From Podargus strigoides (lineage: Eukaryota), in the NCBI GenBank assembly GCA_028020825.1, contig CM051638.1, positions 14,336,861-14,400,860 of the forward strand: 64,000 bases of DNA. The letters run 5' to 3'. Numbering within the stretch: the first letter of the stretch is position 1; every line of letters starts with the position of its first letter. Under the pieces are notes generated by a model. The model worked only from the letters and a program-made list of their open reading frames with translations. It was not told the DNA's origin and searched no databases. The position numbers were made by a program, and so were the translations under genes. Shown piece by piece: positions 33,435 through 64,000 of the stretch.

Positions 33435-33479
33435 CTGCAAAGGGGGGACACACCGGGATATGGTGAGTGTTGGGACACC

Positions 33480-34360: not shown

Positions 34361-34366
34361 CAGTAC

Positions 34367-36197: not shown

Positions 36198-36719
36198 CTA
36201 CGGGCGGCCCGACATTGCTCCTCTCAGCCCTATAGAGCCCCCAGGGCCCCATGGAGTCCATCAAGCCCCCCAGCCCTCTACAACCTTATGGAATCCACAT
36301 GACCCTATCAAGCCCCTATGGCCCTACAGAGCCCCCAAACACTCCCATGGCCCTATACAACCCCAGTGCTCCCCAGGGCCTATAGAGCCCCCATAGTCCT
36401 ACAGAGCCTCCTCAGCATCCCCCACAGCTCTTCAGGAGTGCCACAGTCCTACAGATCCTCTCAAGTCCCTTGTGGCCCTATGGAACCCCTCAAACACCCC
36501 CTAGACTTATAAATCTACATCACCCTATAGCCATATAAATCCACGCCCTGCCCCGTAGCACCCGCACGTTGTAGTCCTGCCAGACACTGAGGTGGGACCC
36601 ACCATCCCATAGATCCTCTCCTGTCCCATAGCACTCACCTTTATTGGTCCTGCCAGATGAAGGAACTGGATGACCCCCCCCCCCAACTCAGAGGTGCCCC
36701 CCTGCCCCATAGCACCCAC

Positions 36720-36838
36720 CTCTCGTGATCCTGTCGGATATAGGTGTGGGGGCCAACCTCCACACGGGTGACATTGCTGTTGAGGTCCAGCACATGGACG
36801 TAGTGGTAGGGTGGTATGCGGATCACAGGGTCCTCCAT
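36720..36838 (-). CDS. MVP: MVP coding exon 1, containing the ATG at 36836-36838 (119 nt, ends in phase 2)
   Basis: Reads [39 protein letters not shown] then the donor ag|GTGGGTG. An AG acceptor (ctgcctcacag|g) lies 18 nt upstream of the ATG, which suggests this is really exon 2. Confidence 0.85.
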
Positions 36839-37079: not shown

Positions 37080-37800
37080 GGAGCAGACGAGCTTCCACGG
37101 GGCTGGGGTGGGGGAGACCTCACCGTGGGAGAGCAGAGCACGTCGCCGCGGGGCAGGACACTTCCCTGTGGCGCGGGAGGGCCGGAAAAGCCTTTGCCCA
37201 GGCCCAGGCCCAGCCCCGACAGCAGGCAGGGCCCAACCCAGCGGGGCCCGCCCCGTGGGCTCGGGGTCACCCCCAGCCCGACTCCACGGCCGGGATCTAC
37301 TCCTCCCGCCGAGATCTACCGTCCCAGGGCACAACCTGCCCCCTCCAGCGCTGCAGCGACACCCCCAGGCTGGATTTACCCCTCTGCGGGGAACGCTTTG
37401 TGCCCCCCCCCGTCTCAGGGCTGGGATTTCCGGGCCGGGCCGGGCCGGGCCGGGAGAAGCGGGCGCAGCCCCAGATGCGATCCGACGGCGCGGCAGGGGC
37501 GGCCCGGGGCCAGGCCGAGGTTCCAGCGGGAGCCGCAGCGCCGCCGGGCGCAAGCCGGGACCCGCCGCCGCCACACCCGCCCCAAGCCCCGGCCCCTGGC
37601 CCGGCCCCGTTGCTTGGCAACCGGCGCCGCCATCTTGCCTGACGCGCCCTGGCAGCAGGCGCTTGTCGCAGCACGCCACCCGCCCCTACGGCGGGGGAGG
37701 GTGAGGAAGGGCGGAGCAGAAGGCTCCAGGCGACCCGCTCGGCTCGCTCCCATTGGTGGGAGGGGAGAGGGGCCAATTACGGGGCGCGGCACCTGAGGGA
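37080..37800 (-). promoter_or_regulatory. MVP: MVP CpG-island promoter region. CCAAT boxes at 37752-37756 (minus sense) and 37773-37777 (inverted). Predicted non-coding first exon somewhere in 37100-37700.
   Basis: The region is extremely CG-dense with no TATA box. It is 240-960 bp upstream of the ATG exon, which itself has an upstream AG acceptor. NF-Y-type CCAAT motifs are present. Confidence 0.55.
37430..37454. repeat. (CCGGG)5 microsatellite within the MVP CpG island
   Basis: The sequence ccgggccgggccgggccgggccggg is seen directly. Confidence 0.9.
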
Positions 37801-40800
37801 ACCGGACAAGGGCGGGGGGGTGCCACGCCTGGCAGGGTGCAGCAGGCCTAGGATAAAACACACAGTGGGTTAGGGAACAGTGTGGGGGACAGCAGGCCTA
37901 GGGGGACACACAGAGTGGGTGAGGGAACAGTGTTGGGGGACAGCAGGCCTAGGGGGACACACCCAGTGGGTGAGGGAGCAGTGTTGGGGGACAGCAGGCT
38001 TAGGAGGACACACACAGTGGGTGAGGGAACAGTGTTGGGGGACAGCAGACCTAGGGGGACCCACAGAGTGGGGTAGGGAACAGTGCTGGCTGACAGCAGG
38101 CCTAGGGGGACACACACAGTGTGTGAGGGAACTGTGCTGGGGGACAGCAGGCCTAGGGGGGCATACACAGTGGGTGCGGGAACAGTGTTGGGGGACAGCA
38201 GGCCTAGGGGGGCACACACAGTGGGTGTGGGAACCGTCCTGGGGGACAGCAGGCCTAGGGGGGCATACACAGTGGGTGCGGGAACAGTGTTGGGGGACAG
38301 CAGGCCTAGGGGGACACACACAGTTGGTGAGGAAACAGTGCTGGGGGACAGCAGGCCTAGGGGGACACACACATAGGGTGAGGAAAGAGTGTTGGGGGAC
38401 AGCAGGCCAAGGGGACACAGAGAGTGGGTGAAGGAACAGTGTTGGGGGACAGCAGGCCTAGGGGGGCACACACAGTGGGTGTGGGAACTGTGCTGGGGTA
38501 CAGCAGGCCTAGGGGGACCCACACAGTGGGGTAGGGAACAGTGCTGGGTGACAGCAGGCCTAGGGGGACACACAGAGTGGGTGAGGGAACAGTGTTAGGG
38601 GACAGCAGGCCTAGGGGGACACACACAGTGGGTGAGGGAACAGTGCTGGGGGACAGCAGGCCTAGGGGGACACACACATTGGGTGACGGAACAGTGCTGG
38701 GTGACAGCAGGCCTAGGGGGACACACACAGTGGGTGAGGGAACAGTGTTGGGGGACAGCAGGCCTAGGGGGGCACACACAGTGGGTGAGAGAACAGTGCT
38801 GGGGGACAGCAGGCCTAGGGGGCATAAGCAGTGGGTGAGGGAATAGTGTTGGGTGCCACCAGACCTAGGGGGACACACACAGTGGGTGAGGGACCAGTGC
38901 TGTGGGACAGCAGGCCTAGGGGGACACACACAGTGGGTGAGGGAACAGTGCTGGGGGACAGCAGGCCTAGGGGGGCACACACAGTGGGTGTGGGAACCGT
39001 GCTGGGGGACAGCAGGCCTAGGGGGACCCACACAGTCGGGTAGGGAACAGTGTTGGGGGACAGCAGGCCTAGGGGGGCACACACAATGGATGTGGGAACA
39101 GTGTTAGGGGACAGCAGGCCTAGGGGGACACACAGAGTGGGTGAGGGAACAGTGCTGGGGGACAGCAGGCCTAGGGGGACACACACATTGGGTGAGGGAA
39201 CAGTGTTGGGGGACAGCAGGCCTAGGGGGGCACACACAGTGGGTGTGGGAACCGTGCTGGGGGACAGCAGGCCTAGGGGGACCCACACAGTCGGGTAGGG
39301 AACAGTGCTGGGGGACAGCAGGCCTAGGGGGACAAACACAGTGGGTGAAGGAACAGTGCTGTGGGACAGCTGGATTAGGGGGACACACACAGTGTGTGAG
39401 GGAACAGTGTTGGGGGACAGCAGTCCTAGGGGGACACACACAGTGGGTGAGGAAACAGTGCTGGGTGACAGCAGGCCTAGGGGGACACACACAGTGTGTG
39501 AGGGAACAGTGCTGGGTGATAGCAGGCCTAGGGGGACACACACGGTGGGTGAGGGAACAGTGTTGGGGGACAGCAGGCCTAGGGGGACACACACCATAGG
39601 TGAGGGAACAGTGCTGGGGGACAGCAGGCCTAGGGGGGCATACACAGTGGATGCGGGAACAGTGTTGGGGGACAGCAGGCCTCGGGGGACACACATATAG
39701 GGTGAGGAAAGAGTGTTGGGGGACAGCAGGCCAAGGGGACACACAGAGTGGGTGAGGGAACAGTGTTGGGGGACAGCAGGCCTAGGGGGGCACACACAGT
39801 GTGTGTGGGAACCATGCTGGGGGACAGCAAGCCTAGGGGGACCCACACAGTGGGGTAGGGAACAGTGCTGGGTGACAGCAGACCTAGGGGGACACACACA
39901 GTGGGTGAGGGAAGAGTGCTGGGGGAAGGCAGGCTTAGGGGGGCACACACAGTGGGTGCGGGAACCTTGCTGGGGGACAGCAGGCCTAGGGGGACACACA
40001 CAGTGGGTGAGGGAAAAGTACTGGGGGACAGGAGTTCTAGGGCGACACACACAGTGGGTGAGGGAACAGTGCTGGGGGACAGCAGGCCTAGGGGGGCATA
40101 CACAGTGGGTGAGGGAACAGTGTTGGGGGACAGCAGGCCTAGGGGGACACACAGAGTGGGTGAGGGAACAGTGTTGGGGGACAGCAGCCCTAGGGGTGCA
40201 CACACAGTGGGTGAGGAAACAGTGGTGGGGGACAGCAGGCCTAGGGGGACCCACACAGTCGGGTAGGGAACAGTGTTGGGGGACAGCAGGCCTAGGGGGG
40301 CACACACAGTGGGTGTGGGAACAGTGTTAGGGGACAGCAGGCCTAGGGGGACACACGGAGTGGGTGAGGGAACAGTGCTGGGGGACAGCAGGCCTAGGGG
40401 GACACACACATTGGGTGAGGAAAGAGTGTTGGGGGACAGCAGGCCTAGGGGGACACACACAGTGGGTGCGGGAACCTTGCTGGGGGACAGCAGGCCTAGG
40501 GGGACACACACAGTGGGTGAGGGAAAAGTACTGGGGGACAGGAGTTCTAGGGCGACACACACAGTGGGTGAGGGAACAGTGCTGGGGGACAGCAGGCCTA
40601 GGGGGGCATACACTGTGGGTGAGGGAACAGTGTTGGGGGACAGCAGGCCTAGGGGGACACACAGAGTGGGTGAGGGAACAGTGTTGGGGGACAGCAGCCC
40701 TAGGGGTGCACACACAGTGGGTGAGGAAACAGTGGTGGGGGACAGCAGGCCTAGGGGGACCCACACAGTCGGGTAGGGAACAGTGCTGGGTGACAGCAGT

Positions 40801-43800: not shown

Positions 43801-46159
43801 CAGGCCTCGGGGGACACACACAGTGGGTGAGGGAAGAGTGCTGGGTGATAGCAGGCCTAGGGGGACACACACATAGGGTGAGGAAAGAGTGTTGGGGGAC
43901 AGCAGGCCAAGGGGACACACAGAGTGGGTGAAGGAACAGTGTTGGGGGACAGCAGGCCTAGGGGGACACACAGAGTGGGTGAGGGAACAGTGTTAGGGGA
44001 CAGCAGGCCTAGGGGGACACACACAGTGGGTGAGGGAACAGTGTTGGGGGACAGCAGGCCTAGGGGGACACACAGAGTGGATGAGGGAACAGTGCTGGGT
44101 GACAGCAGGCCTAGGGGGACACACACAGTGGGTGAGGGAATAGTGTTGGATGCCACCAGACCTAGGGGGACACACACAGTGGGTGAGGGACCAGTGCTGT
44201 GGGACAGCAGGCCTAGGTGGACCCACACAGTCGGGTAGGGAACAGTGTTGGGGGACAGCAGGCCAACGGGGGGCACACACAGTGGGTGTGGAAACAGTGT
44301 TGGGGGACAGCAGGCCTAGGGGGACACACAGAGTGGGTGAGGGAACAGTGCTGGGGGACAGCAGGCCAAGGGGGACACACACATTGGGTGAGGAAAGAGT
44401 GTTGGGGGACAGCAGGCCTAGGGGGACACACAGAGTGGGTGAGGGAACAGTGTTGGGGGACAGCAGGCCTAGGGGGACACCCACAGTGGGTGAGGAAACA
44501 GTGCTGGGGGACAGCAGGCCTAGGGGGACACAAACAGTGTGTGAGGGAACAGTGCTGGATGATATCAGGCCTAGGGGGACATACACGGTGGGTGAGGGAA
44601 CAGTGTTGGGGGACAGCAGGCCTAGGGGGACACACACCATAGGTGAGGGAACAGTGCTGGGGGACAGCAGGCCTAGGGGGGCACACACAGTGGGTGAGGG
44701 AACAGTGCTGGGGGACAGCAGGCCTAGGGGGGCATACACAGTGGGTGCGGGAACAGTGTTGGGGGACAGCAGGCCTCGGGGGACACACACAGTGGGTGAG
44801 GGAACAGTGCTGGGTGATAGCAGGCCTAGGGGGACACACACATAGGGTGAGGAAAGAGTGTTGGGGGACAGCAGGCCAAGGGGACACACAGAGTGGGTGA
44901 AGGAACAGTGTTGGGGGACAGCAGGCCTAGGGGGGCACACACAGTGTGTGTGGGAACCATGCTGGGGGACAGCAAGTCTAGGGGGACCCACTCAGTGGGG
45001 TAGGGAACAGTGCTGGGTGACAGCAGGCCTAGGGGGACACACACAGTGGGTGAGGGAATAGTGCTGGGGGATAGCAGGCCTAGGTGGGCATACACAGTGG
45101 GTGAGGGAAGAGTGCTGGGGGAAGGCAGGCTTAGGGGGGCACACACAGTGGGTGCGGGAACCTTGCTGGGGGACAGCAGGCCTAGGGGGACACACACAGT
45201 GGGTGAGGAAAAAGTGCTGGGGGACAGGAGTTCTAGGGCGACACACACAGTGGGTGAGGGAACAGTGCTGGGGGACAGCAGGCCTAGGGGGGCATACACA
45301 GTGGGTGAGGAAACAGTGTTGGGGAAAGCAGGCCTAGGGGGACACACAGAGCGGGTGAGGGAACAGTGTTGGGGGACAGCAGCCCTAGGGGGACACACAG
45401 AGTGGGTGAGGGAACAGTGTTGGGGGACAGCAGGCCTAGGATGGCACACACAGTGGGTGTGGGAACTGTGCTGGGGTACAGCAGGCCTAGGGGGACCCAC
45501 ACAGTGGGGTAGGGAACAGTGCTGGGTGACAGCAGGCCTAGGGGGACACACAGAGTGGGTGAGGGAACAGTGTTAGGGGACAGCAGGCCTAGGGGGACAC
45601 ACAGAGTGGGTGAGGGAACAGTGCTGGGGGACAGCAGGCCTAGGGGGACACACAGAGTGGGTGAGGGAACAGTGCTGGGGGACAGCAGGCCTAGGGGGAC
45701 ACACACATTGGGTGAGGAAAGAGTGTTGGGGGACAGCAGGCCTAGGGGGACACACAGAGTGGGTGAGGGAACAGTGCTGGGGGACAGCAGGCCTAGGGGG
45801 ACCCACACAGTCGGGTAGGAAACAGTGCTGGGGGACAGCTGGATTAGGGGGACACACACAGTGTGTGAGGGAACAGTGTTGGGGGACAGCAGTCCTAGGG
45901 GGACACACACAGTGGGTGAGGAAACAGTGCTGGGGGACAGCAGGCCTAGGGGGACACACACAGTGTGTGAGGGAACAGTGCTGGGTGATAGCAGGCCTAG
46001 GGGGACACACACGGTGGGTGAGGGAACAGTGTTGGGGGACAGCAGGCCTAGGGGGACACACACCATAGGTGAGGGAACAGTGCTGCGGGACAGCAGGCCT
46101 AGGGGGACACACAGAGTGGGTGAGGGTACAGTGTTGGGGGACAGCAGGACTAGGGGGGC

Positions 46160-49100
46160 ACACACTGTGGGTGTGGGAACCGTGCTGGGGGACAGCAGGC
46201 CTAGGGGGACCCACACAGTCGGGTAGGGAACAGTGCTGGGCGACAGCAGGCCTAGGGGGACAAACACAGTGGGTGAAGGAACAGTGCTGGGGGACAGCTG
46301 GATTAGGGGGACACACACAGTGTGTGAGGGAACAGTGTTGGGGGACAGCAGTCCTAGGGGGACACACACAGTGGGTGAGGAAACAGTGCTGGGGGACAGC
46401 AGGCCTAGGGGGACACACACAGTGTGTGAGGGAACAGTGCTGGGTGATAGCAGGCCTTGGGGGACACACACCATAGGTGAGGGAACAGTGCTGCGGGACA
46501 GCAGGCCTAGGGGGACACACACATAGGGTGAGGAAAGAGTGTTGGGGGACAGCAGGCCAAGGGGCACACAGAGTGCGTGAAGGAATAGTGTTAGGGGACA
46601 GCAGGCCTAGGGGGGCACATACAGTGTGTGTGGGAACCATGCTGGGGGACAGGAAGCCTAGGGGGACCCACAAAGTGGGGTAGGGAACAGTGCTGGGTGA
46701 CAGCAGGCCTAGGGGGACACACACCGTGGGTGAGGGAGTAGTGCTGAGGGATAGCAGGCCTAGGTGGGCATACACAGTGGGTGAGGGAAGAGTGCTGGGG
46801 GAAGGCAGGCTTAGCGGGGCACACACAGTGGGTGCGGGAACCTTGCTGGGGGACAGCAGGCCTAGGGGGACACACACAGTGGGTTAGGGAAAAGTGCTGG
46901 GGGACAGGAGTTCTAGGGCGACACACACAGTGGGTGAGGGAACAGTGCTGGGGGACAGCAGGCCTAGGGGGGCATACACAGTGGGTGAGGGAACAGTGTT
47001 GGGGGACAGCAGGCCTAGGGGGACACACACAGTGGGTGAGGGAACAGTGTTGGGGGACAGCAGCCCTAGGGGTGCACACACAGTGGGTGAGGGAACAGTG
47101 CTGGGTGATAGCAGGCCTAGGGGGACACACACATAGGGTGAGGAAAGAGTGTTGGGGGACAGCAGGCCAAGGGGACACACAGAGTGGGTGAAGGAACAGT
47201 GTTGGGGGACAGCAGGCCTAGGGGGGCACACACAGTGTGTGTGGGAACCATGCTGGGGGACAGCAAGCCTAGGGGGACCCACACAGTGCGGTAGGGAACA
47301 GTGCTGGGTGACAGCAGGCCTAGGGGGACACACACAGTGGGTGAGGGAATAGTGCTGGGGGATAGTAGGCCTAGGGGGACACACAGACTGGGTGAGGGAA
47401 CAGTGTTAGGGGACAGCAGGCCTAGGGGGACACACAGAGTGGGTGAGGGAACAGTGCTGGGGGACAGCAGGCCTAGGGGGGCACACAGAGTAGGTGAGGG
47501 AACAGTGCTGGGGGACAGCAGGCCTAGGGGGACACACACATTGGGTGAGGAAAGAGTGTTGGGGGACAGCAGGCCTAGGGGGACACACAGAGTGGGTGAG
47601 GGAACAGTGTTGGGGGAACGCAGGCTTAGGGGGGCACACACAGTGGGTGCGGGAACCTTGCTGGGGGACAGCAGGCCTAGGGGGACACACACAGTGGGTG
47701 AGGGAAAAGTGCTGGGGGACAGGAGTTGTAGGGCGACACACACAGTGGGTGAGGGAACAGTGCTGGGGGACAGCAGGCCTAGGGGGGCATACACAGTGGG
47801 TGAGGGAACAGTGTTGGGGGACAGCAGGCCTAGGGGGACACACAGAGTGGGTGAGGGAACAGTGTTGGGGGACAGCAGCCCTAGGGGTGCACACACAGTG
47901 GGTGAGGAAACAGTGGTGGGGGACAGCAGGCCTAGGGGGACACACACAGTGTGTGAGGGAACAGTGCTGGGTGATAGCAGGCCTAGGGGGACACACACGG
48001 TGGGTGAGGGAACAGTGTTGGGGGACAGCAGGCCTAGGGGGACACACACCATAGGTGAGGGAACAGTGCTGCGGGACAGCAGGCCTAGGGGGACACACAG
48101 AGTGGGTGAGGGTACAGTGTTGGGGGACAGCAGGACTAGGGGGGCACACACTGTGGGTGTGGGAACCGTGCTGGGGGACAGCAGGCCTAGGGGGACACAC
48201 AGAGTGGGTGAGGGAACAGTGCTGGGGGACAGCAGGCCTAGGTGGACACACACATTGGGTGAGGAAAGAGTGTTGGGGGACAGCAGGCCTAGGGGGACAC
48301 ACAGAGTGGGTGAGGGAACAGTGTTGGGGGACAGCAGGCCTAGGGGGGCATACACAGTGGGTGAGGGAACAGTGTTGGGGGACAGCAGGCCTAGGGGGAC
48401 ACACACAGTGTGTGAGGGAACTGTGCTGGGGGACAGCAGGCCTAGGGGGGCATACACAGTGTGTGCGGGAACAGTGTTGGGGGACAGCAGGCCTCGGGGG
48501 ACACACACAGTGGGTGAGGTAACAGTACTGGGTGATAGCAGGCCTAGGGGGACACACACATAGGGTGAGGAAAGAGTGTTGGGGGACAGCAGGCCAAGGG
48601 GACACACAGAGTGGGTGAAGGAACAGTGTTGGGGGACAGCAGGCCTAGGGGGACACACAGTGGGTGAGGGAACAGTGTTGGGTGACAGCAGGTCTAGGGG
48701 GACACACAGAGTGGGTGAGGGAACAGTGCTGGGGGACAGCAGGCCTAGGGGGGCCCACACAGTGGGGTAGGGAACAGTGCTGGGTGACAGCAGGCCTAGG
48801 GGCACACACAGAGTGGGTGAGGAAACAGTGTTGGGGGACAGCAGGCCTCGGGGGACACACAGAGTGGGTGAGGGAACAGTGTTGGGGGACACCAGGGCTA
48901 GGGGGACACACAGAGTGGGTGTTGGAACAGTGTTGGGGGACAGGAGGCCTAAGGGGAACCACACGGTGGGGTAGGGAACAGTGCTGGGTGACACCAGGCT
49001 TAGGGGGACACGCACAGTGGGTGAGGAAACAGTTTTGGGGGACAGCAGGCCTAGGGGGACACACAGAGTGGATTAGGGAACAGAGGTGGGGGACAGCAGG

Positions 49101-51040
49101 CCTAGGGGGACACACACAGTGGGTGAAGGAACAGTGCTGTGGGACAGCTGGATTAGGGGGACACACACAGTGTGTGAGGGAACAGTGTTGGGGGACAGCA
49201 GTCCTAGGGAGACACACACAGTGGGTGAGGAAACAGTGCTGGGGGACAGCAGGCCTAGGGGGACACACACAGTGTGTGAGGGAACAGTGCTGGGTGATAG
49301 CAGGCCTTGGGGGACACACACGGTGGGTGAGGGAACAGTGTTGGGGGACAGCAGGCCTAGGGGGACACACACCATAGGTGAGGGAACAGTGCTGGGGGAC
49401 AGCAGGCCTAGGGGGGAATCCACAGTGGGTGAGGGAACAGTGTTGGGGGACAGCAGTCCTAGGGGGGCACACACAGTGGGTGAGGGAACAGTGCTGGGGG
49501 ACAGCAGGCCTTGGGGGACACACACAGTGGGTGAGGGAACAGTGCTGGGTGATAGCAGGCCTAGGGGGGCACACACAATGGGTGAGGGAACAGTGTTGGG
49601 GGACAGCAGGACTAGGGGGGCACACACAGTCGGGTAGGGAACAGTGCTGGGGGACAGCTGGATTAGGGGGACACACAGTGCGTGAGGGAACTGTGTTGCG
49701 GGACAGCAGTCCTAGGGGGACACACACAGTGGGTGAGGAAACAGTGTTGGGGGACAGCAGGCCTAGGGGGACACACACAGTGGGTGCGGGAACAGTGTTG
49801 GGGGACAGCAGGCCTCGGGGGACACACACAGTGGGTGAGGTAACAGTACTGGGTGATAGCAGGCCTAGGGGGACACACACATAGGGTGAGGAAAGAGTGT
49901 TGGGGGACAGCAGGCCAAGGGGACACACAGAGTGGGTGAAGGAACAGTGTTGGGGGACAGCAGGCCTAGGGGGACACACAGTGGGTGAGGGAACAGTGTT
50001 GGGGGACAGCAGGTCTAGGGGGACACACAGAGTGGGTGAGGGAACAGTGCTGGGGGACAGGAAGCCTAGGGGGACCCACACAGTGGGGTAGGGAACAGTG
50101 CTGGGTGACAGCAGGCCTAGGGGCACACACAGAGTGGGTGAGGAAACAGTGTTGGGGGACAGCAGGCCTCGGGGGACACACAGAGTGGGTGAGGGAACGG
50201 TGTTGGGGGACAGCAGGGCTAGGGGGACACACAGAGTGGGTAAGGGAACATTGCTGGGGGACAGCAGGCCTAGGGGGGCACACGCAGTGGGTGAGGGAAG
50301 AGTGCTTGGGGACAGCAGGCCTAGGGGGGCACACACAGTGGGTGTGGGAACAGTGTTGGGGGACAGGAGCCCTAAGGGGAACCACACAGTGGGGTAGGGA
50401 ACAGTGCTGGGTGACACCAGGCTTAGGGGGACACGCACAGTGGGTGAGGAAACAGTTTTGGGGGACAGCAGGCCTAGGGGGACACACAGAGTGGATTAGG
50501 GAACAGAGGTGGGGGACAGCAGGCCTAGGGGGACACACACAGTGGGTGAGGGAACAGTGCTGGGGGACAGCAGGTCTAGGGGGTCACACACAGTGGGTGA
50601 AGGAACAGTGCTGTGGGACAGCTGGATTAGGGGGACACACACAGTGTGTGAGGGAACAGTGTTGGGGGACAGCAGTCCTAGGGGGACACACACAGTGGGT
50701 GAGGAAACAGTGCTGGGGGACAGCAGGCCTAGGGGGACACACACAGTGTGTGAGGGAACAGTGCTGGGTGATAGCAGGCCTTGGGGGACACACACGGTGG
50801 GTGAGGGAACAGTGTTGGGGGACAGCAGGCCTAGGGGAACACACACCACAGGTGAGGGAACAGTGCTGGGGGACAGCAGGCCTAGGGGGGAATCCACAGT
50901 GGGTGAGGGAACAGTGTTGGGGGACAGCAGTCCTAGGGGGGCACACACAGTGGGTGAGGGAACAGTGCTGGGGGACAGCAGGCCTAGGGGGGCATACACA
51001 GTGAGTGCGGGAACAGTGTTGGGGGACAGCAGGACTAGGG
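46160..51040. repeat. Higher-order repeat block A (4,885 bp, about 96 units). It is sequence-identical to block B over every ORF examined.
   Basis: ORF pairs at a constant +4,885 offset have identical translations. 46591..47178(-) matches 51476..52063(-), 195 aa. 47117..49015(-) matches 52002..53900(-), 632 aa. 47301..48563(+) matches 52186..53448(+), 420 aa. 48645..50438(-) matches 53530..55323(-), 597 aa. 49985..51004(+) matches 54870..55889(+), 339 aa. Confidence 0.9.
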
Positions 51041-51044
51041 GGGC

Positions 51045-54000
51045 ACACACTGTGGGTGTGGGAACCGTGCTGGGGGACAGCAGGCCTAGGGGGACCCACA
51101 CAGTCGGGTAGGGAACAGTGCTGGGCGACAGCAGGCCTAGGGGGACAAACACAGTGGGTGAAGGAACAGTGCTGGGGGACAGCTGGATTAGGGGGACACA
51201 CACAGTGTGTGAGGGAACAGTGTTGGGGGACAGCAGTCCTAGGGGGACACACACAGTGGGTGAGGAAACAGTGCTGGGGGACAGCAGGCCTAGGGGGACA
51301 CACACAGTGTGTGAGGGAACAGTGCTGGGTGATAGCAGGCCTTGGGGGACACACACCATAGGTGAGGGAACAGTGCTGCGGGACAGCAGGCCTAGGGGGA
51401 CACACACATAGGGTGAGGAAAGAGTGTTGGGGGACAGCAGGCCAAGGGGCACACAGAGTGCGTGAAGGAATAGTGTTAGGGGACAGCAGGCCTAGGGGGG
51501 CACATACAGTGTGTGTGGGAACCATGCTGGGGGACAGGAAGCCTAGGGGGACCCACAAAGTGGGGTAGGGAACAGTGCTGGGTGACAGCAGGCCTAGGGG
51601 GACACACACCGTGGGTGAGGGAGTAGTGCTGAGGGATAGCAGGCCTAGGTGGGCATACACAGTGGGTGAGGGAAGAGTGCTGGGGGAAGGCAGGCTTAGC
51701 GGGGCACACACAGTGGGTGCGGGAACCTTGCTGGGGGACAGCAGGCCTAGGGGGACACACACAGTGGGTTAGGGAAAAGTGCTGGGGGACAGGAGTTCTA
51801 GGGCGACACACACAGTGGGTGAGGGAACAGTGCTGGGGGACAGCAGGCCTAGGGGGGCATACACAGTGGGTGAGGGAACAGTGTTGGGGGACAGCAGGCC
51901 TAGGGGGACACACACAGTGGGTGAGGGAACAGTGTTGGGGGACAGCAGCCCTAGGGGTGCACACACAGTGGGTGAGGGAACAGTGCTGGGTGATAGCAGG
52001 CCTAGGGGGACACACACATAGGGTGAGGAAAGAGTGTTGGGGGACAGCAGGCCAAGGGGACACACAGAGTGGGTGAAGGAACAGTGTTGGGGGACAGCAG
52101 GCCTAGGGGGGCACACACAGTGTGTGTGGGAACCATGCTGGGGGACAGCAAGCCTAGGGGGACCCACACAGTGCGGTAGGGAACAGTGCTGGGTGACAGC
52201 AGGCCTAGGGGGACACACACAGTGGGTGAGGGAATAGTGCTGGGGGATAGCAGGCCTAGGGGGACACACAGACTGGGTGAGGGAACAGTGTTAGGGGACA
52301 GCAGGCCTAGGGGGACACACAGAGTGGGTGAGGGAACAGTGCTGGGGGACAGCAGGCCTAGGGGGGCACACAGAGTAGGTGAGGGAACAGTGCTGGGGGA
52401 CAGCAGGCCTAGGGGGACACACACATTGGGTGAGGAAAGAGTGTTGGGGGACAGCAGGCCTAGGGGGACACACAGAGTGGGTGAGGGAACAGTGTTGGGG
52501 GAACGCAGGCTTAGGGGGGCACACACAGTGGGTGCGGGAACCTTGCTGGGGGACAGCAGGCCTAGGGGGACACACACAGTGGGTGAGGGAAAAGTGCTGG
52601 GGGACAGGAGTTGTAGGGCGACACACACAGTGGGTGAGGGAACAGTGCTGGGGGACAGCAGGCCTAGGGGGGCATACACAGTGGGTGAGGGAACAGTGTT
52701 GGGGGACAGCAGGCCTAGGGGGACACACAGAGTGGGTGAGGGAACAGTGTTGGGGGACAGCAGCCCTAGGGGTGCACACACAGTGGGTGAGGAAACAGTG
52801 GTGGGGGACAGCAGGCCTAGGGGGACACACACAGTGTGTGAGGGAACAGTGCTGGGTGATAGCAGGCCTAGGGGGACACACACGGTGGGTGAGGGAACAG
52901 TGTTGGGGGACAGCAGGCCTAGGGGGACACACACCATAGGTGAGGGAACAGTGCTGCGGGACAGCAGGCCTAGGGGGACACACAGAGTGGGTGAGGGTAC
53001 AGTGTTGGGGGACAGCAGGACTAGGGGGGCACACACTGTGGGTGTGGGAACCGTGCTGGGGGACAGCAGGCCTAGGGGGACACACAGAGTGGGTGAGGGA
53101 ACAGTGCTGGGGGACAGCAGGCCTAGGTGGACACACACATTGGGTGAGGAAAGAGTGTTGGGGGACAGCAGGCCTAGGGGGACACACAGAGTGGGTGAGG
53201 GAACAGTGTTGGGGGACAGCAGGCCTAGGGGGGCATACACAGTGGGTGAGGGAACAGTGTTGGGGGACAGCAGGCCTAGGGGGACACACACAGTGTGTGA
53301 GGGAACTGTGCTGGGGGACAGCAGGCCTAGGGGGGCATACACAGTGTGTGCGGGAACAGTGTTGGGGGACAGCAGGCCTCGGGGGACACACACAGTGGGT
53401 GAGGTAACAGTACTGGGTGATAGCAGGCCTAGGGGGACACACACATAGGGTGAGGAAAGAGTGTTGGGGGACAGCAGGCCAAGGGGACACACAGAGTGGG
53501 TGAAGGAACAGTGTTGGGGGACAGCAGGCCTAGGGGGACACACAGTGGGTGAGGGAACAGTGTTGGGTGACAGCAGGTCTAGGGGGACACACAGAGTGGG
53601 TGAGGGAACAGTGCTGGGGGACAGCAGGCCTAGGGGGGCCCACACAGTGGGGTAGGGAACAGTGCTGGGTGACAGCAGGCCTAGGGGCACACACAGAGTG
53701 GGTGAGGAAACAGTGTTGGGGGACAGCAGGCCTCGGGGGACACACAGAGTGGGTGAGGGAACAGTGTTGGGGGACACCAGGGCTAGGGGGACACACAGAG
53801 TGGGTGTTGGAACAGTGTTGGGGGACAGGAGGCCTAAGGGGAACCACACGGTGGGGTAGGGAACAGTGCTGGGTGACACCAGGCTTAGGGGGACACGCAC
53901 AGTGGGTGAGGAAACAGTTTTGGGGGACAGCAGGCCTAGGGGGACACACAGAGTGGATTAGGGAACAGAGGTGGGGGACAGCAGGCCTAGGGGGACACAC

Positions 54001-55925
54001 ACAGTGGGTGAAGGAACAGTGCTGTGGGACAGCTGGATTAGGGGGACACACACAGTGTGTGAGGGAACAGTGTTGGGGGACAGCAGTCCTAGGGAGACAC
54101 ACACAGTGGGTGAGGAAACAGTGCTGGGGGACAGCAGGCCTAGGGGGACACACACAGTGTGTGAGGGAACAGTGCTGGGTGATAGCAGGCCTTGGGGGAC
54201 ACACACGGTGGGTGAGGGAACAGTGTTGGGGGACAGCAGGCCTAGGGGGACACACACCATAGGTGAGGGAACAGTGCTGGGGGACAGCAGGCCTAGGGGG
54301 GAATCCACAGTGGGTGAGGGAACAGTGTTGGGGGACAGCAGTCCTAGGGGGGCACACACAGTGGGTGAGGGAACAGTGCTGGGGGACAGCAGGCCTTGGG
54401 GGACACACACAGTGGGTGAGGGAACAGTGCTGGGTGATAGCAGGCCTAGGGGGGCACACACAATGGGTGAGGGAACAGTGTTGGGGGACAGCAGGACTAG
54501 GGGGGCACACACAGTCGGGTAGGGAACAGTGCTGGGGGACAGCTGGATTAGGGGGACACACAGTGCGTGAGGGAACTGTGTTGCGGGACAGCAGTCCTAG
54601 GGGGACACACACAGTGGGTGAGGAAACAGTGTTGGGGGACAGCAGGCCTAGGGGGACACACACAGTGGGTGCGGGAACAGTGTTGGGGGACAGCAGGCCT
54701 CGGGGGACACACACAGTGGGTGAGGTAACAGTACTGGGTGATAGCAGGCCTAGGGGGACACACACATAGGGTGAGGAAAGAGTGTTGGGGGACAGCAGGC
54801 CAAGGGGACACACAGAGTGGGTGAAGGAACAGTGTTGGGGGACAGCAGGCCTAGGGGGACACACAGTGGGTGAGGGAACAGTGTTGGGGGACAGCAGGTC
54901 TAGGGGGACACACAGAGTGGGTGAGGGAACAGTGCTGGGGGACAGGAAGCCTAGGGGGACCCACACAGTGGGGTAGGGAACAGTGCTGGGTGACAGCAGG
55001 CCTAGGGGCACACACAGAGTGGGTGAGGAAACAGTGTTGGGGGACAGCAGGCCTCGGGGGACACACAGAGTGGGTGAGGGAACGGTGTTGGGGGACAGCA
55101 GGGCTAGGGGGACACACAGAGTGGGTAAGGGAACATTGCTGGGGGACAGCAGGCCTAGGGGGGCACACGCAGTGGGTGAGGGAAGAGTGCTTGGGGACAG
55201 CAGGCCTAGGGGGGCACACACAGTGGGTGTGGGAACAGTGTTGGGGGACAGGAGCCCTAAGGGGAACCACACAGTGGGGTAGGGAACAGTGCTGGGTGAC
55301 ACCAGGCTTAGGGGGACACGCACAGTGGGTGAGGAAACAGTTTTGGGGGACAGCAGGCCTAGGGGGACACACAGAGTGGATTAGGGAACAGAGGTGGGGG
55401 ACAGCAGGCCTAGGGGGACACACACAGTGGGTGAGGGAACAGTGCTGGGGGACAGCAGGTCTAGGGGGTCACACACAGTGGGTGAAGGAACAGTGCTGTG
55501 GGACAGCTGGATTAGGGGGACACACACAGTGTGTGAGGGAACAGTGTTGGGGGACAGCAGTCCTAGGGGGACACACACAGTGGGTGAGGAAACAGTGCTG
55601 GGGGACAGCAGGCCTAGGGGGACACACACAGTGTGTGAGGGAACAGTGCTGGGTGATAGCAGGCCTTGGGGGACACACACGGTGGGTGAGGGAACAGTGT
55701 TGGGGGACAGCAGGCCTAGGGGAACACACACCACAGGTGAGGGAACAGTGCTGGGGGACAGCAGGCCTAGGGGGGAATCCACAGTGGGTGAGGGAACAGT
55801 GTTGGGGGACAGCAGTCCTAGGGGGGCACACACAGTGGGTGAGGGAACAGTGCTGGGGGACAGCAGGCCTAGGGGGGCATACACAGTGAGTGCGGGAACA
55901 GTGTTGGGGGACAGCAGGCCTTGGG
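51045..55925. repeat. Higher-order repeat block B (4,885 bp), a tandem copy of block A
   Basis: Same ORF pairs as block A. Divergence from the flanks begins at about 46170/51055 on the left and about 51037/55922 on the right. Confidence 0.9.
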
Positions 55926-58029
55926 GGACACACACAGTGGGTGAGGGAACAGTGCTGGGTGATAGCAGGCCTAGGGGGGCACACACAATGGGTGAGGGAA
56001 CAGTGTTGGGGGACAGCAGGACTAGGGGGGCACACACAGTCGGGTAGGGAACAGTGCTGGGGGACAGCTGGATTAGGGGGACACACAGTGCGTGAGGGAA
56101 CTGTGTTGCGGGACAGCAGTCCTAGGGGGACACACACAGTGGGTGAGGAAACAGTGCTGGGGGACAGCAGGCCTAGGGGGACACACACAGTGGGTGCGGG
56201 AACAGTGTTGGGGGACAGCAGGCCTCGGGGGACACACACAGTGGGTGAGGTAACAGTACTGGGTGATAGCAGGCCTAGGGGGACACACACATAGGGTGAG
56301 GAAAGAGTGTTGGGGGACAGCAGGCCAAGGGGACACACAGAGTGGGTGAAGGAACAGTGTTGGGGGACAGCAGGCCTAGGGGGACACACAGTGGGTGAGG
56401 GAACAGTGTTGGGGGACAGCAGGTCTAGGGGGACACACAGAGTGGGTGAGGGAACAGTGCTGGGGGACAGGAAGCCTAGGGGGACCCACACAGTGGGGTA
56501 GGGAACAGTGCTGGGTGACAGCAGGCCTAGGGGCACACACAGAGTGGGTGAGGAAACAGTGTTGGGGGACAGCAGGCCTCGGGGGACACACAGAGTGGGT
56601 GAGGGAACAGTGTTGGGGGACAGCAGGGCTAGGGGGACACACAGAGTGGGTAAGGGAACATTGCTGGGGGACAGCAGGCCTAGGGGGGCACACGCAGTGG
56701 GTGAGGGAAGAGTGTTTGGGGACAGCAGGCCTAGGGGGGCACACACAGTGGGTGTGGGAACAGTGTTGGGGGACAGGAGGCCTAAGGGGAACCACACAGT
56801 GGGGTAGGGAACAGTGCTGGGTGACACCAGGCTTAGGGGGACACGCACAGTGGGTGAGGAAACAGTTTTGGGGGACAGCAGGCCTAGGGGGACACACAGA
56901 GTGGATTAGGGAAAAGAGGTGGGGGACAGCAGGCCTAGGGGGACACACACAGTGGGTGAGGGAACAGTGCTGGGGGACAGCAGGTCTAGGGGTACACACA
57001 CAGTGGGTGAAGGAACAGTGCTGTGGGACAGCTGGATTAGGGGGACACACACAGTGTGTGAGGGAACAGTGTTGGGGGACAGCAGTCCTAGGGGGACACA
57101 CACAGTGGGTGAGGAAACAGTGCTGGGGGACAGCAGGCCTAGGGGGACACACACAGTGTGTGAGGGAACAGTGCTGGGTGATAGCAGGCCTTGGGGGACA
57201 CACACAGTGGGTGAGGGAACAGTGTTGGGGGACAGCAGGCCTAGGGGGACACACACCATAGGTGAGGGAACAGTGCTGGGGGACAGCAGGCCTAGGGGGG
57301 AATCCACAGTGGGTGAGGGAACAGTGTTGGGGGACAGCAGGCCTAGGGCGGCACACACAGTGGGTGAGGAAACAGTGCTGGGGGACAGCAGGCCTAGGGG
57401 GGCATACACAGTGGGTGCGGGAACAGTGTTGGGGGACAGCAGGCCTCGGGGGACACACACAGTGGGTGAGGGAACAGTGCTGGGTGATAGCAGGCCTAGG
57501 GTGACACACACATAGGGTGAGGAAAGAGTGTTGGGGGACAGCAGGCCAAGGGGACACACAGAGTGGGTGAAGGAACAGTGTTGGGGCACAGCAGGCCTAG
57601 GGGGGCACACACAGTGTGTGTGGGAACCATGCTGGGGGACAGGAAGCCAAGGGGGACCCACAAAGTGGGGTAGGGAACAGTGCTGGGTGACAGCAGGCCT
57701 AGGGGGACACACACCGTGGGTGAGGGAATAGTGCTGGGGGATAGCAGGCCTAGGTGGGCATACACAGTGGGTGAGGGAAGAGTGCTGGGGGAAGGCAGGC
57801 TTAGGGGGGCACACACAGTGGGTGCGGAACCTTGCTGGGGGACAGCAGGCCTAGGGGGACACACACAGTGGGTGAGGGAAAAGTGCTGGGGGACATGAGT
57901 TCTAGGGCGACACATACAGTGGGTGAGGGAACAGTGCTGGGGGACAGGAGGCCTAGGGGGGCATACACAGTGGGTGAGGGAACAGTGTTGGGGGACAGCA
58001 GGCCTAGGGGGACACACACAGTGGGTGAG

Positions 58030-61000
58030 GAACCAGTGTTGGGGGACATCAGCCCTAGGGGTGCACACACAGTGGGTGCGGGAACAGTGTTGGGGGACAG
58101 CAGGCCTAGGGGGACGGACACATTGGGTGAGGGAACAGTGCTGGGGGACAGCAGGCCTAGGGGGACACACACAGTGGGTGAGGGAACAGTGTTGGGGGAC
58201 AGCAGGCCTAGGGGGGCACACATAGTGGGTGTCGGAACTGTGCTGGGGTACAGCAGGCCTAGGGGGACCCACACAGTGGATGAGGGAACAGTGCTGGGGG
58301 ACAGCAGGCCTAGGGGGGCACACACAGTCGGGTAGGGAACAGTGCTGGGGGACAGCAGGCCTAGGGGGGCATACACAGTGGGTGCGGGAACAGTGTTGGG
58401 GGACAGCAGGCCTCGGGGGACACACACAGTGGGTGAGGAAACAGTGCTGTGGGACAGCAGGTCTAGGGGGTCACACACAGTGGGTGAAGGAACAATGCTG
58501 TGGGACAGCTGGATTAGGGGGACACACACAATGTGTGAGGGAACAGTGTTGGGGGACAGCAGTCCTAGGGGGACACACACAGTGGGTGAGGAAACAGTGC
58601 TGGGGGACAGCAGGCCTAGGGGGACACACACAGTGTGTGAGGGAACAGTGCTGGGTGATAGCAGGCCTTGAGGGACACACACGGTGGGTGAGGGAACAGT
58701 GTTTGGGGACAGCAGGCCTAGGGGGACACACACCATAGGTGAGGGAACAGTGCTGGGGGACAGCAGGCCTAGGGGGGAATCCACAGTGGGTGAGGGAACA
58801 GTGTTGGGGGACAGCAGTCCTAGGGGGGCACACACAGTGGGTGAGGGAACAGTGCTGGGGGACAGCAGGCCTTGGGGGACACACACAGTGGGTGAGGGAA
58901 CAGTGCTGGGTGATAGCAGGCCTAGGGTGACACACACATAGGGTGAGGAAACAGTGTTGGGGGACAGCAGGCCTAGGGGGGCACACACAGTGTGTGTGGG
59001 AACCATGCTGGGGGACAGGAAGCCAAGGGGGACCCACAAAGTGGGGTAGGGATCAGTGCTGGGTGACAGCAGGCCTAGGGGGACACACACCGTGGGTGAG
59101 GGAATAGTGCTGGGGGATAGCAGGCCTAGGTGGGCATACACAGTGGGTGAGGGAAGAGTGCTGGGGGAAGGCAGGCTTAGGGGGGCACACACAGTGGGTG
59201 CGGGAACCTTGATGGGGGACAGCAGGCCTAGGGGGACACACACAGTGGGTGAGGGAAAAGTGTTGGGGGACATCAGCCCTAGGGGTGCACACACAGTGGG
59301 TGCGGGAACAGTGTTGGGGGACAGCAGGCCTAGGGGGACACACACAGTGTGTGAGGGAACTGTGCTGGGGGACAGCAGGCCTAGGGGGGCATACACAGTG
59401 GGTGCGGGAACAGTGTTGGGGGACAGCAGGCCTCGGGGGACACACACAGTGGGTGAGGAAACAGTGCTGGGGGACAGCAGGCCTAGGGGGACACACACAG
59501 TGTGTGAGGGACCAGTGCTGGGTGATAGCAGGCCTTGGGGGACACACACGGTGGGTGAGGGAACAGTGCTGGGGGACAGCAGGCCTAGGGGGACACACAC
59601 CATAGGTGAGGGAACAGTGCTGGGGGACAGCAGGCCTAGGGGGGAATCCACAGTGGGTGAGGGAACAGTGTTGGGGGACAGCAGGCCTAGGGGGGCATAC
59701 ACAGTGGGTGCGGGAACAGTGTTGGGGGACAGCAGGCCTAGGGGGACACACACAGTGGGTGAGGGAACAGTGTTGGGGGACAGCAGGCCTAGGGGGGCAC
59801 ACAGAGTGGGTGTCGGAACTGTGCTGGGGTACAGCAGGCCTAGGGGGACCCACACAGTGGGTGAGGGAACAGTGCTGGGGAACAGCAGGCCTAGGGGGGC
59901 ACACACAGTCGGGTAGGGAACAGTGCTGGGGGACAGCAGGCCTAGGGGGGCATACACAGTGGGTGCGGGAACAGTGCTGGGGGACAGCAGGCCTAGGGGG
60001 ACACACACCATAGGTGAGGGAACAGTGCTGGGGGACATCAGCCCTAGGGGTGCACACACAGTGGGTGCGGGAACAGTGTTGGGGGACAGCAGGCCTAGGG
60101 GGACGGACACATTGGGTGAGGGAACAGTGCTGGGGGACAGCAGGCCTAGGGGGACACACACAGTGGGTGAGGGAACAGTGTTGGGGGACAGCAGGCCTAG
60201 GGGGGCACACAGAGTGGGTGTCGGAACTGTGCTGGGGTACAGCAGGCCTAGGGGGACCCACACAGTGGGTGAGGGAACAGTGCTGGGGGACAGCAGGCCT
60301 AGGGGGGCACACACAGTCGGGTAGGGAACAGTGCTGGGGGACAGCAGGCCTAGGGGGGCATACACAGTGGGTGCGGGAACAGTGTTGGGGGACAGCAGGC
60401 CTCGGGGGACACACACAGTGGGTGAGGAAACAGTGCTGGGGGACAGCAGGTCTAGGGGGTCACACACAGTGGGTGAAGGAACAATGCTGTGGGACAGCTG
60501 GATTAGGGGGACACACACAATGTGTGAGGGAACAGTGTTGGGGGACAGCAGTCCTAGGGGGACACACACAGTGGGTGAGGAAACAGTGCTGGGGGACAGC
60601 AGGCCTAGGGGGACACACACAGTGTGTGAGGGAACAGTGCTGGGTGATAGCAGGCCTTGAGGGACACACACGGTGGGTGAGGGAACAGTGTTTGGGGACA
60701 GCAGGCCTAGGGGGACACACACCATAGGTGAGGGAACAGTGCTGGGGGACAGCAGGCCTAGGGGGGAATCCACAGTGGGTGAGGGAACAGTGTTGGTGGA
60801 CAGCAGTCCTAGGGGGGCACACACAGTGGGTGAGGGAACAGTGCTGGGGGACAGCAGGCCTTGGGGGACACACACAGTGGGTGAGGGAACAGTGCTGGGT
60901 GATAGCAGGCCTAGGGTGAAACACACATAGGGTGAGGAAACAGTGTTGGGGGACAGCAGGCCTAGGGGGGCACACACAGTGTGTGTGGGAACCATGCTGG

Positions 61001-62010
61001 GGGACAGGAAGCCAAGGGGGACCCACAAAGTGGGGTAGGGATCAGTGCTGGGTGACAGCAGGCCTAGGGGGACACACACCGTGGGTGAGGGAATAGTGCT
61101 GGGGGATAGCAGGCCTAGGTGGGCATACACAGTGGGTGAGGGAAGAGTGCTGGGGGAAGGCAGGCTTAGGGGGGCACACACAGTGGGTGCGGGAACCTTG
61201 CTGGGGGACAGCAGGCCTAGGGGGACACACACAGTGGGTGAGGGAAAAGTGTTGGGGGACATCAGCCCTAGGGGTGCACACACAGTGGGTGCGGGAACAG
61301 TGTTGGGGGACAGCAGGCCTAGGGGGACACACACAGTGTGTGAGGGAACTGTGCTGGTGGACAGCAGGCCTAGGGGGGCATACACAGTGGGTGCGGGAAC
61401 AGTGTTGGGGGACAGCAGGCCTCGGGGGACACACACAGTGGGTGAGGAAACAGTGCTGGGGGACAGCAGGCCTAGGGGGACACACACAGTGTGTGAGGGA
61501 CCAGTGCTGGGTGATAGCAGGCCTTGGGGGACACACACGGTGGGTGAGGGAACAGTGCTGGGGGACAGCAGGCCTAGGGGGACACACACCATAGGTGAGG
61601 GAACAGTGCTGGGGGACAGCAGGCCTAGGGGGGAATCCACAGTGGGTGAGGGAACAGTGTTGGGGGACAGCAGGCCTATGGGGGCATACACAGTGGGTGC
61701 GGGAACAGTGTTGGGGGACAGCAGGCCTTGGGGGACACACACAGTGGGTGAGGGAACAGTGCTGGGTGATAGCAGGCCTAGGGTGACACACACATAGGGT
61801 GAGGAAACAGTGTTGGGGGACAGCAGGCCTAGGGGGGCACACACAGTGTGTGTGGGAACCATGCTGGGGGACAGGAAGCCAAGGGGGACCCACAAAGTGG
61901 GGTAGGGAACAGTGCTGGGTGACAGCAGGCCTAGGGGGACACACACCGTGGGTGAGGGAATAGTGCTGGGGGATAGCAGGCCTAGGTGGGCATACACAGT
62001 GGGTGAGGGA
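58030..62010. repeat. Two tandem copies of a 1,989-bp higher-order repeat (39 units), about 99% identical
   Basis: 58471..59037(-) versus 60460..61026(-) is 188 aa with 2 differences. 58342..58671(+) versus 60331..60660(+) is 109 aa with 1 difference. 58739..58930(+) versus 60728..60919(+) and 59056..(+) versus 61045..(+) also match. All offsets are exactly 1,989, which is 39 x 51. Confidence 0.85.
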
Positions 62011-64000
62011 AGAGTGCTGGGGGAAGGCAGGCTTAGGGGGGCACACACAGTGGGTGCGGGAACCTTGCTGGGGGACAGCAGGCCTAGGGGGACACACACA
62101 GTGGGTGAGGGAACAGTGTTGGGGGACAGCAGGCCTAGGGGGGCACACACAATGGGTGAGGGAACAGTGTTGGGGGACAGCAGGCCTAGGGGGGCACAAA
62201 CAGTCGGGTAGGGAACAGTGCTGGGGGACAGCAGGCCTAGGGGGACAAACACAGTGTGTGAAGGAACAGTGCTGGGGGACAGCTGGATTAGGGGGACACA
62301 CAATGCGTGAGGGAACTGTGTTGCGGGACAGCAGTCCTAGGGGGACACACACAGTGGGTGAGGAAACAGTGTTGGGGGACAGCAGGCCTAGGGGGACACA
62401 CACAGTGGGTGGGGAACAGTGCTGTGTGACAGCAGGCCTAGGGGGACACACAGCGTCGGTGAGAGAATAGTGCTGGGGGATAGCAGGCCTAGGTGGGCAT
62501 ACACAGTGGGTGAGGGAAGAGTGCTGGGGGAAGGCAGGCTTAGGGGGGCACACACAGTGGGTGCGGGAAACTTGCTGGGGGACAGCAGGCCTAGGGGGAA
62601 ACACAGAGTGGGTGAGGGAAAAGTGTTGGGGGACAGCAGGCCTAGGGGGGCATACACAGTGGGTGAGGGAACAGTGTTGGGGGACAGCAGGCCTAGGGGG
62701 ACACACACAGTGGGTGAGGGAACAGTGTTGGGGGACAGCAGCCCTAGGGGTGCACACACAGTGGGTGAGGGAACAGTGTTGGGGGACAGCAGGCCTAGGG
62801 GGACACACACATTGGGTGAGGGACCAGTGCTGTGGGACAGCAGGCCTAGGGGGACACACACAGTGGGTGAGGGAACAGTGCTGGGGGACAGCAGGCCTAG
62901 GGGGACACACACATTGGGTGAGGAAAGAGTGTTGGGGGACAGCAGGCCTAGGGGGACACACAGAGTGGGTGAGGGAACAGTGTTGGGGGACAGCAGGCCT
63001 AGGGGGGCACACACAATGGGTGAGGGAACAGTGTTGGGGGACAGCAGGCCTAGGGGGGGCACACACAGTCGGGTAGGGAACAGTGCTGGGGAACAGCAGG
63101 CCTAGGGGGACAAAGACAGTGGGTGAAGGAACAGTGCTGGGGGACAGCTGGATTAGGGGGACACACAGTGCGTGAGGGAACTGTGTTGCGGGACAGCAGT
63201 CCTAGGGGGACACACACAGTGGGTTAGGAAACAGTGCTGGGGGACAGCAGGCCTAGGGGGACACACACAGTGTGTGAGGGAACTGTGCTGGGGGACAGCA
63301 GGCCTAGGGGGACACACACAGTGGGTGAGGTAACAGTACTGGGTGATAGCAGGCCTAGGGGGACACACGCATAGGGTGAGGAAAGAGTGTTGGGGGACAG
63401 CAGGCCAAGGGGACACACAGAGTGGGTGAAGGAACAGTGTTGGGGGACAGCAGGCCTAGGGGGGCACACACAGTGTGTGTGGGAACCATGCTGGGGGACA
63501 GCAAGCTAAGGGGGACCCACAAAGTGGGGTAGGGAACAGTGCTGGGTGACAGCCGGCCTAGGGGGACACACACCGTGGGTGAGGGAATAGTGCTGGGGGA
63601 TAACAGGCCTAGGTGGGCATACACAGTGGGTGAGGGAAGAGTGCTGGGGGACAGCAGGCCTAGGAGGACCCACACAGTGGGGTAGGGAACAGTGCTGGGT
63701 GACAGCAGTCCTAGGGGGACACACAGAGTGGGTAAGGGAACATTGCTGGATGACAGCAGTCCTAGGGCGACACACACAGTGGGTGAGGGAACAGTGTTGG
63801 GGGACAGCAGGCCTAGGGGGGCACAAACAGTGGGTGAGGGAACAGTGCTGGGGGACAGCAGGCCTAGGGGGACACACACAGTGGATGAGGAAACAGCGTT
63901 TGGGGACAGCAGGCCTAGGGGGACACACACAGTGGGTGAGGGAACAGTGCTCGGGAACAGCAGGACTAGGGGGACACACACAGTGGGTCAGGGGACAGTG

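Follow-up and report, generated by a model that had tools for sequence, protein, structure and literature searches.

How does a block of tandem repeats of satellite size come to lie beside the putative promoter of a housekeeping gene, and what is it? This question is raised by a stretch of 64,000 nucleotides of Podargus strigoides (GenBank assembly GCA_028020825.1, contig CM051638.1, positions 14,336,861 to 14,400,860 of the forward strand), which is called the window below and in which positions are counted from its first letter. The right part of the window is filled with an array of 51-bp units, and the array starts where the 5′ region of the MVP gene ends. We analyzed the structure of the array, the gene beside it and the MVP loci of seven other birds. 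The explanation to which we give about an even chance is that the array is a lineage-specific, non-coding satellite without sequence-specific function, which originated in intergenic DNA on the upstream side of MVP and expanded there.

Extent and composition of the array

The array occupies positions 37840 to 64000 on the plus strand. It is a continuous, satellite-scale repeat in a single orientation, with units arranged head to tail and without interruption, as determined by Tandem Repeats Finder (TRF), unit parsing and a per-column consensus. TRF reported a single array in the window, with a period of 51, 513.8 copies, 86% matches, 0% indels and a score of 38262. The right edge of the array is the end of the window, and the length is at least 26,161 bp, in agreement with the preliminary description of this DNA, which had put it above 26 kb. 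Base identity was 0.83 at a lag of 51 versus 0.22–0.40 at the neighbouring lags (45–57).

To parse the units, the 13 bases at the start of the 51-bp unit were used as an anchor. This gave 513 full 51-bp-type units and a final unit of 43 nt cut by the end of the window. The common length of 51 bp was found in 476 units, and the others measured 50 bp (n = 23), 49 bp (n = 12) or 52 bp (n = 2). Anchor spacings were all 49–52 bp or 102 bp. Since these correspond to one or two units, the array holds no insert larger than one unit, and the earlier statement that it is free of transposon insertions is upheld. No inverted units were found among the 513 that were parsed. The preliminary description had counted about 510 near-identical units from position 37,838. 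The count agrees well with the 513 uninterrupted units found here, but the start lies at 37840 (± a few bases) and the units share a pairwise identity of only ∼87%.

The consensus of the unit on the G-rich strand is CAGCAGGCCTAGGGGGACACACACAGTGGGTGAGGGAACAGTGCTGGGGGA. The GC content of the array is 0.62, and the plus strand is G-rich throughout, with a GC skew of +0.40 to +0.43 and an AT skew of about +0.33; the G-runs therefore lie on the plus strand, as had been noticed before. The consensus contains no CpG, and 176 CpG were observed in the array against 2,084 expected (observed/expected 0.084). Mean identity was 86.9% between pairs of units and 92.4% between units and consensus, a unit being on average 3.9 edits per 51 bp (7.6%) away from the consensus. 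The units comprise 215 different sequences, and the exact consensus is present in 6 units only. Units at all positions along the array diverge from the consensus to a similar degree, and only the first unit forms a degenerate edge. The array thus has the features generally used to define satellite DNA, i.e. hundreds of copies of one unit, spread over more than 10 kb and non-coding.

Growth of the array by block duplication

An identical twin elsewhere in the array was found for 401 of the 513 units (78%), with a median separation of 96 units, and 71% of the units fall within near-identical blocks of at least 8 units. A block of 96 units (4,885 bp, positions 46142–51026, plus strand) is followed in direct tandem by a second copy of the same length at 51027–55911 (plus strand). 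The two copies differ by 1 edit (99.98% identity), and the sizes of spurious open reading frames (ORFs) recur identically at an offset of 4,885 bp. A partial third copy, made of 28 units from the end of the 96-unit block, lies at 55912–57334 (plus strand) and is 99.3% identical to 49502–50924 and 54387–55809. Two blocks of 33 units at 58047–59729 and 60036–61718 (plus strand) are 99.5% identical and offset by 39 units (1,989 bp).

Apart from such isolated block duplications, no higher-order repeat was detected at lags of 1–200 units. The mean edit distance was 6.93 between adjacent units versus 6.66 overall. The absence of a dip at short lags, together with the fact that adjacent units are no closer to each other than distant ones, shows that there is no higher-order organization. 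The present length of the array was built mainly by duplications of many units (0.4–4.9 kb) and not by slippage of single units. Growth was thus mainly by multi-kilobase duplications of differing age, a signature of unequal exchange. The 4,885-bp duplicate is either the product of a very recent unequal exchange or a duplication made in assembly.

Coding and structural potential of the unit

The unit length is divisible by three (51 = 3 × 17), four of the six frames of the consensus are open (one of them, on the minus strand, reads SPSTVPSPTVCVPLGLL) and spurious ORFs of up to 1,500 amino acids occur in the array. Nevertheless, none of the frames has fewer than 111 stops over the length of the array, the reading frame is shifted by 37 units, and the variation among units has no 3-base (codon) periodicity (p = 0.42). 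The translation SPSTVPSPTVCVPLGLL, the sole frame searched, had no homologue among 5.8 billion proteins. The array cannot encode protein.

Three further sequence properties of the unit were considered. No canonical G-quadruplex (G4) motif, in which four G-runs, each of 3 or more G, are separated by loops of 1–7 nt, is present in the array, and 326 G4-like motifs appeared on the plus strand solely when loops of up to 12 nt were permitted. ViennaRNA with the G4 option predicted hairpins instead of G4, with an energy no better than that of shuffled units. The case that each 51-bp unit would form a G-quadruplex is weak on these predictions. An internal sub-repeat of 17 bp, hinted at by weak TRF rows, was rejected, the observed maximum being reached by 46% of shuffles. 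A short dyad, TGCTG-GGGGA-CAGCA, straddles each unit junction.

The MVP gene and its putative promoter

The preliminary description had noticed a gene of housekeeping type next to the array, and the Pfam domains identify it as MVP. Its multi-exon coding region lies on the minus strand at 26923–36838, with the start codon at 36838 and the stop codon at 26923–26925, as judged by ORF translations, Pfam and bird homologues. The ORFs contain the domains Vault, Vault_2, Vault_3, Vault_4 and MVP_shoulder. The closest relatives are fragments from neoavian birds (Ibidorhyncha, Chlamydotis, Atlantisia, Stercorarius and Chroicocephalus) with 85–90% identity. GC content is 0.60–0.67 across the gene.

Upstream of the coding region, a CpG island of 539 bp at ∼37301–37839 (minus strand) directly adjoins the array. 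Its GC content is 0.757 and its CpG observed/expected ratio is 0.76, whereas this ratio is 0.066 over the 560 bp with which the array begins. We infer that the island is the MVP promoter and holds the core promoter and the untranslated first exon. Within it, the motif CAAGATGGCGGCGCCGGTTGCC is located at 37616–37637 (minus strand), and the array begins 203 bp upstream of this motif. A motif of 22 nt, CAAGATGG[C/A]GGCGCCGGTTGCC, is common to the MVP 5′ regions of the window (37616–37637, minus strand) and of the gull Chroicocephalus ridibundus (locus L001, 9971–9992). The two copies differ by one A/C exchange, while the flanking sequence is only ∼70–74% identical. The motif contains AAGATGGCGGC, which we take to be a YY1-type core. 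The shared motif is probably an element of the MVP core promoter or transcription start site. The C-rich strand of the array is the sense strand of MVP.

MVP loci of other birds

Seven MVP loci were compared with the window: those of the gull (L001, GCA_963924245.1), the houbara Chlamydotis macqueenii (L002), the ibisbill Ibidorhyncha (L003), the skua Stercorarius (L004), the Inaccessible Island rail Atlantisia (L005), the crested ibis Nipponia (L006) and the lesser rhea Rhea pennata (L007, GCA_028389875.1). The Nipponia and Rhea loci were drawn from a second MVP protein search. DNA identity of the window to L001–L005 was 73–79%, and the three Charadriiformes were 80–84% identical to one another, which puts the window within Neoaves but not among the Charadriiformes. 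The 51-mer was absent at all seven loci.

Tandem arrays of other units were found instead. In the gull, a 50-bp repeat of 7.7 copies (L001, 9548–9928) is C-rich on the MVP sense strand and ends 43 bp upstream of the shared 22-nt motif, thus matching the 51-bp array in relative position and polarity. The houbara carries an array of 31 copies of a 20-bp unit, GGGTCGATCCTGCCCTGGGG, in the MVP 5′ region (L002, 8021–8665). About two degenerate copies of a motif related to this houbara unit were seen in the window at ∼37290–37340. In the rhea, numerous tandem arrays have lengthened the MVP gene to ∼28.5 kb (L007, regions 4083–7139 and 20371–22285). One of its arrays, with 20.3 copies of a 151-bp unit at 99% identity, carries the end of MVP exon 2 and the start of the intron, and another, with 11.8 copies of a 159-bp unit, likewise includes coding sequence. 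The rhea gene is a clear example of ‘exon stuttering’. Judged from the loci compared, MVP is shown to be repeat-prone across birds, with unrelated units in each species.

The bird MVPs in the protein collection are all partial models of 223–640 amino acids, compared with ∼850–890 expected, which is consistent with a locus that is hard to assemble in birds. The GC content of MVP in the window, the partial state of all the bird models and the location of the gull orthologue on a record of 3.2 Mb make a GC-rich microchromosome a plausible setting for the array, a possibility that had been raised from the first reading of the sequence.

Origin of the array

The array looks like a known kind of element, i.e. 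the tandem satellite and minisatellite expansions of GC-rich bird microchromosomes, and would be an unusually large case of it. In the explanation that we favour, a non-coding satellite which arose locally in one lineage, the duplications would have come from unequal exchange between sister chromatids or homologues together with gene conversion. They would be due to the same local instability, termed ‘sequence stuttering’, as the lineage-specific minisatellites in the genes and intergenic DNA of avian dot chromosomes. The array may have reached its extreme size because it is intergenic and hence would be free of length constraint, in a setting that is GC-rich, repeat-prone and probably microchromosomal. 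It would have no sequence-specific function of its own, and the sharp edge at 37840 would be maintained by selection on the MVP promoter. Its likely effects would be passive ones. A promoter would have repeat chromatin as its neighbour, the G-rich strand would have some potential for non-B DNA, copy number would be polymorphic, and the region would be hard to assemble.

GC-rich human minisatellites have a G-rich strand bias and units of tens of bp, grow and turn over through conversion and unequal exchange close to recombination-active DNA, and usually measure 0.5–20 kb. In birds, recombination hotspots are located at CpG islands and not at PRDM9 sites. The 51-bp array is like the human minisatellites in strand bias and unit size, but it is larger and is found in a bird. 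Closer counterparts are the ‘sequence stuttering’ minisatellite expansions of avian dot chromosomes (PMC12954441; for the zebra finch, 10.1101/2025.10.17.683159), and the euchromatin of zebra finch dot chromosomes is described as filled with minisatellites in the telomere-to-telomere papers on this species. These are imperfect, GC-rich, lineage-specific tandem arrays in and around housekeeping genes of GC-rich microchromosomes, and such arrays are present at MVP itself in other birds. The array agrees with them in that its units lie within ∼20% edit distance of their consensus, its unit is in the size range of tens to hundreds of bp, and it is lineage-specific, the seven other MVP loci bearing different arrays.

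Several observations weigh against a local origin of this kind. No adjacent unique sequence from which the unit could derive, and no other recognizable progenitor, was found: the rest of the window (38 kb including the flanks) contains nothing like the 51-bp unit beyond chance matches of 10–15 nt. The similarity between the gull 50-mer and the 51-mer is not significant, the score being reached in 575 of 2000 shuffles. In the literature, ‘stuttering’ arrays lie for the most part in introns and fall far short of 26 kb, whereas the 51-bp array is intergenic, and it is at least 10 times longer than the arrays at MVP of the other birds examined. The introns of MVP in the window are only lightly repetitive, with repeats of 2–3 copies. 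DNA rich in transposable elements (TEs) lies 12 kb from the array, in contrast to the TE-poor euchromatin of chicken dot chromosomes (PMC9974502). Finally, the ∼13% divergence between units suggests that the array is old and would also be compatible with a dispersed satellite family.

Such a family is the basis of the main alternative, which we regard as possible but somewhat doubtful: the array would be one locus of a genome-wide satellite, lying on a microchromosome as a block in the subtelomere or at the border of heterochromatin, with MVP as the last gene before the block. The model for it is PO41, a tandem repeat with a 41-bp unit in the subtelomeres of chicken and Japanese quail, with ∼63% GC and G-rich/C-rich strands (PMC4301066, PMC3091757). 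By description, the two share a short unit, ∼62–63% GC, strand asymmetry and a long array beside gene-rich DNA, the PO41 arrays being located on small chromosomes; they differ in the unit (41 bp versus 51 bp) and in the host (galliform versus neoavian). The layout of zebra finch dot chromosomes, with an optional distal satellite block, Tgut191A (10.1101/2025.10.14.682431), is also comparable, as this block directly follows the euchromatic, gene-bearing part. Its unit, compared by description, is 191 bp long and not 51 bp.

The size of at least 26 kb, with an array that runs past the end of the window, is on the scale of such satellites, and the 62% GC content and strong G/C strand asymmetry resemble those of PO41. 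Further points in favour of such a family are the ∼13% divergence with patchy recent homogenization, as in old dispersed satellites, the lack of a detected local progenitor and the sharp junction to unique DNA. The array is oriented with the G-rich strand 5′ to 3′ away from the gene. Telomeric repeats and many subtelomeric ones have their G-rich strand running 5′ to 3′ toward the chromosome end, and the orientation would fit if the end lies to the right. On the other side, telomeric (TTAGGG)n was not found anywhere in the 64-kb window, the gull MVP is ∼370 kb from the end of its record and thus not at the tip, and the other 38 kb of the window contain no second copy of the unit. In the literature searched, no bird satellite with a 51-bp unit was described, a 16-mer of the unit was not matched, and ‘SatNN-51’ did not occur as a name in a bird paper. 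These points are not strong. The unit had no exact 20- or 21-mer match in JGI metagenome contigs, IMG/VR viral contigs or GTDB genomes, which are collections with essentially no bird DNA, and a phage BLAST with 1 kb of the array gave no match. The absent progenitor, the ∼13% divergence and the sheer size fit a genome-wide family and a local expansion equally well. The suggestion in the preliminary description that the array marks a heterochromatin-euchromatin boundary found no support in the window: the sharp junction is with the CpG-island promoter, and the TE-rich DNA is found beyond the gene, as seen from the array.

Transcription of PO41-type arrays is possible, as is their coincidence with recombination-hot regions. 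By analogy, the array could belong to an uncharacterised satellite family and function as a chromosomal element: a subtelomeric or border block of a dot chromosome whose G-rich strand would be transcribed from the MVP CpG island in the direction opposite to the gene, giving rise to R-loops, or to long-loop G4 and Z-DNA, and which would act as a PO41-like, recombination-hot and RNA-producing domain that shields the MVP promoter. We consider this unlikely.

It is similarly improbable that the assembled length or order is partly an artefact, through false tandem duplication or mis-joined reads, and that the true array is much shorter or rearranged. The 4,885-bp direct tandem with a single difference is the pattern expected of a false duplication, and the G-rich repeats of bird dot chromosomes are reported to lower HiFi coverage and to complicate assembly. 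However, the 215 unit variants follow one another in a non-periodic order, and the remaining duplicated blocks differ by 0.5–0.7%, as would be expected of real events of different ages. Each of the 49-, 50- and 52-bp variants recurs together with linked substitutions of its own, which random homopolymer errors would not produce. The order of the variants and this linkage speak for the reality of the array taken as a whole. Even when the suspicious copy is dropped, more than 21 kb of array is left.

It is very improbable that a small chromosome has its active centromere, or its inner pericentromere, in the array. Large satellites of short units mark acrocentric chicken centromeres, an example being CNM, the 41-bp centromeric repeat of chicken microchromosomes, which forms higher-order repeats at centromeres bound by CENP-A (PMC9974502). 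The 51-bp array is like CNM in being a short-unit satellite in a large array on what may be a small bird chromosome, and the dyad across each unit junction would also suit a centromeric repeat. Unlike CNM, it has no higher-order repeat and adjoins a promoter: a CpG-island promoter of the type found at expressed genes is located 200 bp from it. The array has no homogenized core, its units are only ∼87% alike, and no flanking layers of degenerate monomers were seen, the divergence being flat along the array. The pericentromeric location proposed earlier is therefore unsupported by the window.

Lastly, a giant coding variable number tandem repeat, in the form of a mucin-like exon of 17-residue Ser/Pro/Thr-rich repeats, can be dismissed almost entirely, as the open consensus frames and the unit length of 3 × 17 are outweighed by the stops, the frame shifts and the lack of codon periodicity and of a homologue for the one frame searched, and no terminal exon or polyadenylation signal is present between the array and the MVP promoter.

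Other features of the window

The composition of the window changes in a step at ∼25000, from a GC content of ∼0.42–0.54 in the TE-rich left part to 0.60–0.67 from the MVP 3′ end onward; seen from the gene, GC content drops from ∼0.65 to ∼0.48 downstream of MVP. The richness in TEs that had been described for 1–25 kb was confirmed by a CR1 long interspersed nuclear element (LINE) with endonuclease and reverse-transcriptase domains and by fragments with retroviral integrase and RNase H. The CR1 LINE lies at 13231–17341 on the minus strand. Both of its reading frames are open, ORF1 with 356 amino acids and ORF2 with 895 amino acids and the domains Exo_endo_phos and RVT_1. At its 3′ end, 3.4 copies of the CR1-type octamer repeat AATCACAG (plus strand) are present at 13231–13257. 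Recently active CR1 copies are uncommon in many birds, and this one, with its intact frames, may be such a copy. An exact-protein look-up of its ORF1 found no recorded match. Two more CR1 fragments are located at ∼2.9–3.6 kb and 19.4–21.4 kb.

Fragments of endogenous retroviruses were found at 6236–6799 (plus strand), 11440–12738 (minus strand) and 860–1288 (minus strand), and the domains recognized among them were integrase zinc-binding and core domains and RNase H. Neither the env-like ORF at 860–1288 nor the ORF at 11440–11919 had a Pfam match. A search of the whole window against Rfam gave no match.

Significance

The array reveals no new kind of genetic element, and the 4.9-kb duplication at 46142–55911 calls for caution in trusting the assembly. 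If the unit is genome-wide, it would add to the satellites that are specific to one species and reside on microchromosomes, and could serve as a marker in cytogenetics and assembly. If it is confined to the MVP locus, few single tandem expansions of intergenic DNA on record next to a conserved housekeeping promoter in a bird would be as large, and the array would offer a clean natural test of how far such growth can go without silencing of the neighbouring gene. Either way, the array helps to account for the fact that bird MVP is only partly assembled or annotated in most genomes.

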